Source: Escherichia coli
GTDB taxonomy: Bacteria; Pseudomonadota; Gammaproteobacteria; Enterobacterales; Enterobacteriaceae
Assembly (NCBI RefSeq): GCF_050320075.1
Contig: NZ_CP190018.1
Strand: one strand, 5' to 3'
DNA: 64,000 nucleotides
Shown here: positions 24,008-25,377 of the stretch, piece after piece
How positions within the stretch are numbered: the stretch's first letter is position 1
Layout: each line of letters starts with the position of its first letter
Position numbers and translations under genes: made by a program
Notes under the pieces: model-generated
Told to the model about the DNA's origin: nothing
The model's input: the letters and a program-made list of their open reading frames with translations, nothing else
Database searches by the model: none

Positions 24008-24529
24008 ATGTCAAAGCCAAAATACCCTTTTGAAAAGCGCCTTGAAGTCGTGAATCACTACTTCACAACTGATGATGGTTACAGGATCATCTCGGCACGT
24101 TTTGGTGTCCCCCGAACCCAGGTCAGGACATGGGTTGCCCTCTATGAAAAACATGGAGAAAAAGGTTTAATTCCCAAACCTAAAGGCGTTAGTGCTGATC
24201 CAGAGTTGCGTATTAAGGTCGTGAAAGCTGTGATCGAGCAGCACATGTCCCTTAATCAGGCTGCTGCTCACTTTATGCTTGCTGGTAGTGGTTCTGTAGC
24301 CAGGTGGCTGAAGGTCTATGAAGAGCGCGGAGAAGCTGGTTTACGCGCGCTCAAGATTGGCACCAAAAGAAACATTGCAATATCAGTTGATCCAGAAAAA
24401 GCGGCATCAGCATTGGAGCTGTCAAAAGACCGACGCATTGAGGATCTTGAAAGGCAAGTTCGATTTCTTGAAACGCGGCTTATGTATCTAAAAAAGCTGA
24501 AAGCCTTAGCTCATCCCACGAAAAAGTAA
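24008..24529 (+). CDS. insJ: IS150 OrfA (InsJ), HTH protein, 173 aa
   Basis: ORF track 24008..24529. Confidence 0.9.
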   Translation: MSKPKYPFEKRLEVVNHYFTTDDGYRIISARFGVPRTQVRTWVALYEKHGEKGLIPKPKGVSADPELRIKVVKAVIEQHMSLNQAAAHFMLAGSGSVARWLKVYEERGEAGLRALKIGTKRNIAISVDPEKAASALELSKDRRIEDLERQVRFLETRLMYLKKLKALAHPTKK

Positions 24530-25377
24530 AAGTACTCAACGAGCTAAGGCAGTTTTATCCTCTTGATGAGCTTCTCAGGGCTGCGGAGATACCGCGCAGT
24601 ACGTTTTATTACCATCTAAAGGCTCTCAGCAAGCCTGACAAGTATGCGGACGTTAAAAAGCGTATTGGTGAGATTTATCACGAGAATAGAGGCCGATACG
24701 GATACCGTAGGGTAACGCTGTCTCTTCATCGAGAAGGGAAACAGATTAACCATAAAGCTGTTCAGCGCCTGATGGGAACCCTCTCACTTAAAGCAGCGAT
24801 TAAGGTCAAGCGATACCGCTCTTACAGAGGAGAGGTAGGGCAAACCGCCCCTAATGTTCTCCAAAGAGATTTCAAGGCTACGCGGCCAAACGAGAAGTGG
24901 GTTACCGATGTTACTGAATTTGTAGTCAATGGGCGCAAGCTGTATTTGTCTCCAGTAATAGATCTCTTCAACAACGAAGTTATTTCTTACAGCCTTTCGG
25001 AAAGACCAGTGATGAACATGGTTGAGAATATGCTCGATCAGGCATTCAAAAAGCTTAATCCTCACGAGCATCCTGTTCTGCACTCTGACCAGGGATGGCA
25101 GTATCGTATGAGAAGATATCAAAATATCCTTAAAGAACATGGTATTAAACAAAGCATGTCCAGAAAAGGCAATTGTCTGGATAATGCTGTGGTGGAGTGT
25201 TTCTTTGGAACCTTAAAGTCGGAGTGTTTTTATCTTGATGAGTTCAGTAATATAAGCGAACTGAAGGATGCTGTTACGGAATATATTGAATACTACAACA
25301 GCAGAAGAATTAGCCTGAAATTAAAAGGTCTGACTCCAATTGAATATCGGAATCAGACCTATATGCCTCGTGTTTAA
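24490..25377 (+). CDS. insK: IS150 OrfB (InsK) DDE transposase part, reached by programmed -1 frameshift from orfA
   Basis: Frame -1 relative to orfA is open from the A-AAA-AAG heptamer (24490-24496) to the stop at 25377 and reads ...[23 protein letters not shown]..., continuing into ORF-track product 24772..25377. Confidence 0.8.

Follow-up and report, generated by a model that had tools for sequence, protein, structure and literature searches.

In a 64,000-nt stretch of Escherichia coli DNA, referred to below as the window, two overlapping reading frames of an insertion sequence raise the question of whether they are joined by a programmed −1 ribosomal frameshift, and whether the element that carries them still encodes a functional transposase. 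A preliminary description, made from the sequence alone, had located an A-AAA-AAG heptamer at 24490–24496 in the zero frame of orfA, 31 nt before the orfA stop, and a −1 frame that is open from there into the DDE domain. Both statements held when we read coordinates, phase and stop again and translated the −1 frame. The plus strand around 24485–24511 reads TAT CTA AAA AAG CTG AAA GCC TTA GCT, and as 24488 is the first base of an orfA codon, the heptamer is phased as X XXY YYZ. After a stop at 24469–24471, the −1 frame stays open from 24472 to the stop at 25375–25377; the stop between 24496 and 24772 that had been named as possible counter-evidence is not there. The two frames, orfA in 0 and orfB in −1, overlap, and the heptamer lies inside the overlap.

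The heptamer alone carries little weight. AAAAAAG occurs 23 times on the two strands of the window, against 15.1 expected, a difference that makes its presence insignificant. What is non-random is the combination of an in-phase heptamer, a 0/−1 overlap of the ORFs and a hairpin 6 nt downstream that covaries in related elements. We put at about 95% the probability that positions 23961–25403 of the window are an intact IS150 (IS3 family, IS150 group) and that 24490–24550 constitute its programmed −1 ribosomal frameshift signal, and within the sequence we found no evidence against this explanation. The coordinates of the features are collected in Table 1. The span originally assigned to the site, 24488–24530, covers the heptamer, the 5′ stem arm and the orfA stop, and the 3′ arm of the hairpin falls outside it.

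Table 1. Features of the IS150 element and its frameshift signal, in window coordinates.
Feature	Position	Strand	Basis or remark
Left AAG of the 3-bp target-site duplication	23958–23960	none	Read off the sequence
Complete IS150 element, 1443 bp	23961–25403	+	Inverted-repeat search; 100% identical annotated copies elsewhere; 4 mismatches to K-12
Left terminal inverted repeat (IRL), starts TGTACTG	23961–23991	+	31 nt, 71% complementary to 25373–25403
orfA (insJ/InsA), 173 aa, HTH DNA-binding protein, zero-frame product without shift	24008–24529	+	ORF list; Pfam HTH_28, best stretch residues 10–60
Slippery heptamer A AAA AAG, in phase CUA AAA AAG (orfA codons 161–163, L-K-K)	24490–24496	+	Sequence; same phase in 10/10 relatives
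orfB part of OrfAB, −1 frame after the shift, 293 codons and stop	24496–25377	+	Frame open from 24472
6-nt spacer CUGAAA, heptamer to stem	24497–24502	+	Folding; 6 nt in all 11 elements
5′ arm of stimulatory hairpin, GCCUUAGCUC	24503–24512	+	Folding; covariation
28-nt loop, holds the orfA stop (24527–24529) and the 24528 polymorphism	24513–24540	+	Folding
Minority allele A (K-12: G), in the hairpin loop	24528	+	Comparison with the K-12 copy
3′ arm of hairpin, GAGCUAAGGC, over OrfB codons E-L-R-Q	24541–24550	+	Folding; covariation
Catalytic D301 (GAT)	24907–24909	+	Invariant in 12 aligned sequences
Catalytic D361 (GAC), 59 residues after D301	25087–25089	+	Alignment
Catalytic E397 (GAG), 35 residues after D361	25195–25197	+	Alignment
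Conserved K404	25216–25218	+	Alignment
Right terminal inverted repeat (IRR), ends CAGTACA	25373–25403	+	Inverted-repeat search, pair with IRL
Right AAG of the 3-bp target-site duplication	25404–25406	none	Read off the sequence
hokA, 50 aa	25479–25631		Within listed ORF 25419–25631

Identity and limits of the element

The terminal repeats of IS150 are imperfect, and both the size of the element and its TG...CA ends fit the IS150 group (~1.4 kb). It is bounded by a direct target duplication of the 3 bp characteristic of IS150, with AAG in the window and CCC at a copy near hokE that is discussed below. This is the only IS150 copy in the window. In a megablast search, 2864 of 5426 complete E. coli genomes contained the IS150 unit, the median being 2 places in each. 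The search returned 3445 matching E. coli records, and copies 100% identical to that of the window were among the matches listed. In those identical copies, again among the matches listed, PGAP uses the product name 'IS3-like element IS150 family transposase' and annotates the CDS as a two-piece join with the remark 'programmed frameshift', the ends of which correspond exactly to window positions 24008 and 25377.

The closest studied counterpart is the IS150 of E. coli K-12 MG1655 (insJ/insK, b3557/b3558; NC_000913.3 3720633–3722075). It has the same 1443 bp, heptamer, spacer, stem and terminal repeats, the same OrfA (173 aa) and the same OrfAB length (456 aa), and it likewise occupies hokA/sokA, with glyS on one side and cspA on the other. 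The two copies are identical at 1439 of 1443 bases and differ at 24528, 24612, 24667 and 24923. The K-12 copy also differs in its setting, being in the opposite orientation and without a target duplication (2634–4076 of the NC_000913.3 segment compared), and ~39 bp of the adjoining hokA leader (GAGGCCCC...GCCTCT) are missing there, an arrangement that a second insertion, an inversion or a deletion beside the element may have produced.

A survey of IS3-family elements (PMC4066793 and its supplement) counts IS150 among the proven −1 frameshifts, names a stem-loop as its stimulator and places the motif at codon 163, the products being 173 and 456 aa long; the values in the window match these exactly. 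The insJ/IS150 cluster in that supplement is marked 'N' for a conserved Shine-Dalgarno sequence and 'Y' for a hairpin. The first entry agrees with the window, where neither GGAG, AGGA nor GAGG occurs in the 30 nt upstream of the heptamer, TCGATTTCTTGAAACGCGGCTTATGTATCT (24460–24489). A Shine-Dalgarno-like stimulator upstream is an optional feature of −1 frameshift signals, present in some members. Scanning 23700–25800 with Rfam 15 at E ≤ 1 gave no frameshift-element family and nothing overlapping 24490–24550. Rfam appears to have no model for the IS150 signal, and this null result is no argument against the signal.

The site in the window is a textbook IS150 programmed −1 frameshift site and as such already known: the IS150 site has been experimentally characterised since 1991 and is already encoded in annotation pipelines. 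For the window, this would mean annotating insJ and insK as one recoded transposase gene of an intact, probably active IS150; beyond correct annotation the significance is small.

The OrfAB transposase and the activity of this copy

Joining orfA codons 1–163 to the −1 frame from 24496 gives an OrfAB of 456 aa. Pfam finds HTH_28, HTH_21, rve (residues 292–390) and rve_2 in it, and with the NCBIfam model transpos_IS3 it reaches 413 bits, the cutoff being 160. Disruption of the DDE residues had been named as an observation that would speak against a functional transposase, and we found D301, D361 and E397 intact. Together with K404 they are invariant in the 12 sequences aligned, namely the window, K-12 and ten relatives. 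[quoted passage not shown] The D(59)D(35)E-K of the window fits this description, with K as the seventh residue past E and six residues in between. Compared with the K-12 reference, as the preliminary description had proposed, OrfAB differs at two residues, having G221 for S and V306 for A. Both lie in variable columns of the alignment, and G221 is shared with ISKpn8.

We also found a 100% identical 1443-bp IS150, with all four differences from K-12 included, upstream of hokE in the genome of ST2747 (NZ_CP007394.1; 2501–3943 of the segment compared). It has its own CCC duplication, and its flanks are unrelated in sequence to those at hokA. Because the same variant stands at hokE with a separate duplication and unrelated flanks, it must have transposed. 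Gene conversion between hokA and hokE was considered as a source of the hokE copy and rejected, as the flanks have no meaningful similarity and the target duplications differ.

The suggestion that the element still encodes a functional OrfAB transposase is thus well supported, although not proven: the ends, the target duplication, the catalytic residues and both ORFs show no damage, and elsewhere an identical copy has inserted with a duplication of its own. We consider it very unlikely that the window copy is instead an inactive relic, disabled for example by G221 or V306, with its signal intact and passed on only by vertical inheritance at hokA. The same junction occurs in 1131 of the 5426 complete E. 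coli genomes, which indicates that the insertion at hokA is old and inherited, and the protein departs from the majority IS150 protein at two residues. However, these two residues fall in variable columns, one of them being shared with another element. Neither ORF is disrupted, the DDE-K residues are preserved, as are the two terminal repeats and the target duplication, and the hokE copy with its separate duplication requires transposition of this same variant.

A hairpin downstream of the slippery heptamer

Whether a stimulatory stem-loop lies just downstream of the heptamer had been left as a point to check. RNA folding of 24490–24570 produced a perfect 10-bp stem, GCCUUAGCUC/GAGCUAAGGC, that begins 6 nt past the heptamer. 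Folded alone, the 48-nt hairpin reaches −14.9 kcal/mol (z = −5.5), a value not attained by any of 200 shuffles. Sharma et al. derived empirical rules from 271 IS3-family members, by which the stimulator starts 4–10 nt after the motif, opens with a G-C pair and continues for at least 3 further pairs, has a stability of at least 7.6 kcal/mol and spans 17–140 nt (PMC4066793); the hairpin in the window agrees with all of these. A longer MFE fold, in which part of the heptamer (AAAGCU) pairs with AGUUUU, was disregarded, as these bases are inside the ribosome at the moment of the shift.

To see how the signal compares in other elements, we used relatives found by tblastn of OrfB against plasmids. 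Ten were taken, with OrfB identities of 51–95%: ISKpn8, three Klebsiella/E. coli elements (~70%), elements from Enterobacter, Pandoraea, Acinetobacter and Rhizobium (~55%), ISEnfa3, and an E. faecalis element (51%). They span Proteobacteria and Firmicutes (Enterobacteriaceae, Acinetobacter, Pandoraea, Rhizobium, Enterococcus). Despite this divergence in OrfB, ISKpn8, ISEnfa3 and the other IS150-group elements share with the window the DD(35)E-K core and the parts of the signal. The heptamer is in phase within the 0/−1 overlap in all ten, as A6G except in Rhizobium, where it is A7 (A AAA AAA). The spacer measures 6 nt in every relative, and 9–10 of the 10 stem positions pair, the stem beginning (G/A/U)C(C/U)UU. 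It is the loops that vary, from 23 to 55 nt.

In a loop-trimmed alignment of the 11 elements, 99.1% of cells are paired and six of the ten pairs have changed on both sides. Compensatory examples are G-C to A-U and to U-A at the base of the stem, C-G to U-A, and G-C to A-U. No shuffle out of 500 came up to the observed figure for pairing percentage, for the number of pairs or of cells with changes on both sides, or for the covariation score, and sliding the 3′ arm by 1–3 columns lowers pairing to 17–51%. These figures should be read with the construction of the alignment in mind, as loop interiors were trimmed and 3′ arms placed by complementarity, which biases it towards the stem. It replaced a MAFFT alignment of the full frameshift regions, in which the 3′ arms of the two Enterococcus elements were misplaced because loop lengths differ; the loop-trimmed version has equal lengths. 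Part of the stem conservation is at the level of the protein, since in most relatives the codons for the conserved E-L-R-Q of OrfB coincide with the 3′ arm. In ISEnfa3, by contrast, the 3′ arm is shifted by ~8 codons towards the start of orfB relative to IS150, and this displacement argues for selection on the RNA itself. The comparative data add cross-phylum covariation support for the hairpin and leave the overall picture unchanged.

We judge it highly improbable that, instead of a simple hairpin, the stimulator is a pseudoknot in which the loop pairs with sequence further downstream. The loop sequence GUAAAA could pair with UUUUAU (24554–24559), three bases past the stem, and IS3, another element of the same family, uses a pseudoknot. 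Yet when the loop was searched against the 40 nt downstream, this 6-bp A/U helix, the best in IS150, was no better than chance, an equally good one arising in 445 of 500 shuffles of that downstream stretch, and we rejected it. The helix is also not kept in ISKpn8, where the best loop–downstream helix is a different one of 4 bp, and the IS150 stimulator has been called a stem-loop (PMC4066793).

Proposed mechanism of frameshifting

The phase, the overlap, the hairpin and its conservation are observations; the steps that follow draw on general knowledge of −1 frameshifting and on the IS150 literature, and we infer that they apply to the window copy from its identity to the IS150 that has been studied. 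With its P and A sites occupied by tRNA-Lys on AAA and AAG, a ribosome translating orfA would pause as the hairpin at its mRNA entrance resists being unwound. The two tRNAs would then slip back by one base onto AAA AAA, and decoding would resume in the −1 frame at GCU (24496–24498). Shifted ribosomes would make the 456-aa OrfAB transposase, with its HTH domains, HTH_21 and DDE integrase core, and unshifted ones would stop at the UAA at 24527 and release the 173-aa OrfA/InsA. The frequency of the shift would set the ratio of transposase to regulator and hence the level of transposition. Vogele and colleagues reportedly found in 1991 that about one third of ribosomes shift and that mutation of the stem lowers the shift by about 80%. 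PMC4066793 and PMC8254509 credit Vogele et al. 1991 with the report of a transframe protein of IS150, and synthesis of the IS150 transposase requires PRF (PMC8254509).

Among other members of the IS3 family, IS911, IS3 and IS2 resemble IS150 in that A AAA AAG and a downstream RNA structure drive −1 slippage of tRNA-Lys (PMC4066793). In IS150 this structure is a simple hairpin, and an upstream Shine-Dalgarno-like stimulator is absent. In E. coli dnaX, too, the combination of A AAA AAG and a downstream RNA structure leads to −1 slippage of tRNA-Lys. Both IS911 and dnaX additionally use a Shine-Dalgarno-like stimulator upstream, and IS3 a pseudoknot.

As far as is known, efficient transcriptional slippage in E. 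coli needs runs longer than 6 A, and the run here is of 6 A only. An origin of OrfAB by such slippage, with RNA polymerase adding one A in the A6 run and so fusing orfA and orfB in the mRNA, can be set aside almost entirely: the site is a homopolymeric A run and there are IS3-family members with documented transcriptional realignment (PMC6211511; Sharma et al. 2011 as cited in PMC4066793), but a covarying hairpin that always lies 6 nt downstream is a hallmark of ribosomal recoding, and for IS150 a ribosomal −1 frameshift stimulated by a stem-loop is listed as proven (PMC4066793).

A variant base in the orfA stop codon

With the G>A difference from K-12 at 24528, orfA ends in TAA rather than TGA and the annotated insK start GTG reads GTA; in OrfAB the change is silent (Val). 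An exact match to the 60-mer around the A is present in 150 records, versus 3235 records with 1–2 mismatches. The −1 frame of the window is without ATG, GTG or TTG from 24472 to 24771, and the A at 24528 removes the only canonical −1-frame start upstream of the catalytic domain. As no such start precedes 24772, the shift is needed for any protein that contains the catalytic domain in full.

Two further ideas, put forward here as a pair of which one or the other might apply, are speculative and on balance unlikely. Either the variant with A at 24528 makes no separately initiated InsB, and its control of transposition is possibly unlike that of the K-12 type, or independent insertions of IS150 at equivalent spots of two sequence-unrelated hok loci point to targeting directed by structure, or to selection for silencing the hok toxins. 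As to the first, synthesis of InsB is said, in the 1991 work of Vogele and colleagues, to involve frameshifting as well; in that case a 31-kDa InsB would still be expected with GTA in place of GTG, perhaps with its start at the in-frame AUG at 24482. Control of transposition could differ without InsB because OrfB inhibits transposition in the related ISSau2 (PMC5771124).

Insertion at hok loci

In the window, IS150 splits the hokA/sokA type I toxin-antitoxin locus into parts at 23884–23960 and 25404–25631. The Rfam sok model matches 23884–24037, the real part of which ends at the IS boundary, and 25326–25481, the real part of which starts after the IS. In 23700–25800, the split sok/hok and the edge of a cspA thermoregulator were the only Rfam matches that scored at least the gathering score or had strong E-values.

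Across the complete genomes, the junction found in the window, on the glyS side and with the IS in glyS orientation (the 1131 genomes given above), stands beside the K-12-type junction of opposite orientation in 1643 genomes and the hokE junction in 811. A large share of resident IS150 copies lies inside hok toxin loci. The hokE copy of ST2747 has the same orientation relative to hok as that of the window and occupies the equivalent spot in the hok leader, ~25 nt past AGCCCC and immediately ahead of GGGGC (hokE) or GAGGCC (hokA). These equivalent spots suggest a target preference or selection for the silencing of hok loci.

Some smaller observations concern the neighbouring genes. Just past the glyS stop, a G+C-rich hairpin is followed by a T run (23716–23756, AAAAAGCCTGCCATCTGGCAGGCTTTTTTT) and looks like the intrinsic terminator of glyQS. 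The same stretch has weak, sub-threshold Rfam matches to STnc370 and to leader families, which are probably a mere resemblance to a terminator. On the other side of the element, PGAP labels the cspA-locus gene beside hokA 'cspE' in two of the segments compared (L001 and L014, 4359–4571; WP_000014594.1), an inconsistency of naming. Between the window and the genomes CFSAN061763 and 266917_2, there are two differences in 6.4 kb, one in cspA at 26027 and the other, G/A, in glyS at 22977. The CspA of the window (cspA, minus strand, 25819–26031) begins MYGKMTG where K-12, CFSAN061763 and 266917_2 have MSGKMTG, the base at 26027 accounting for the change Ser2Tyr.
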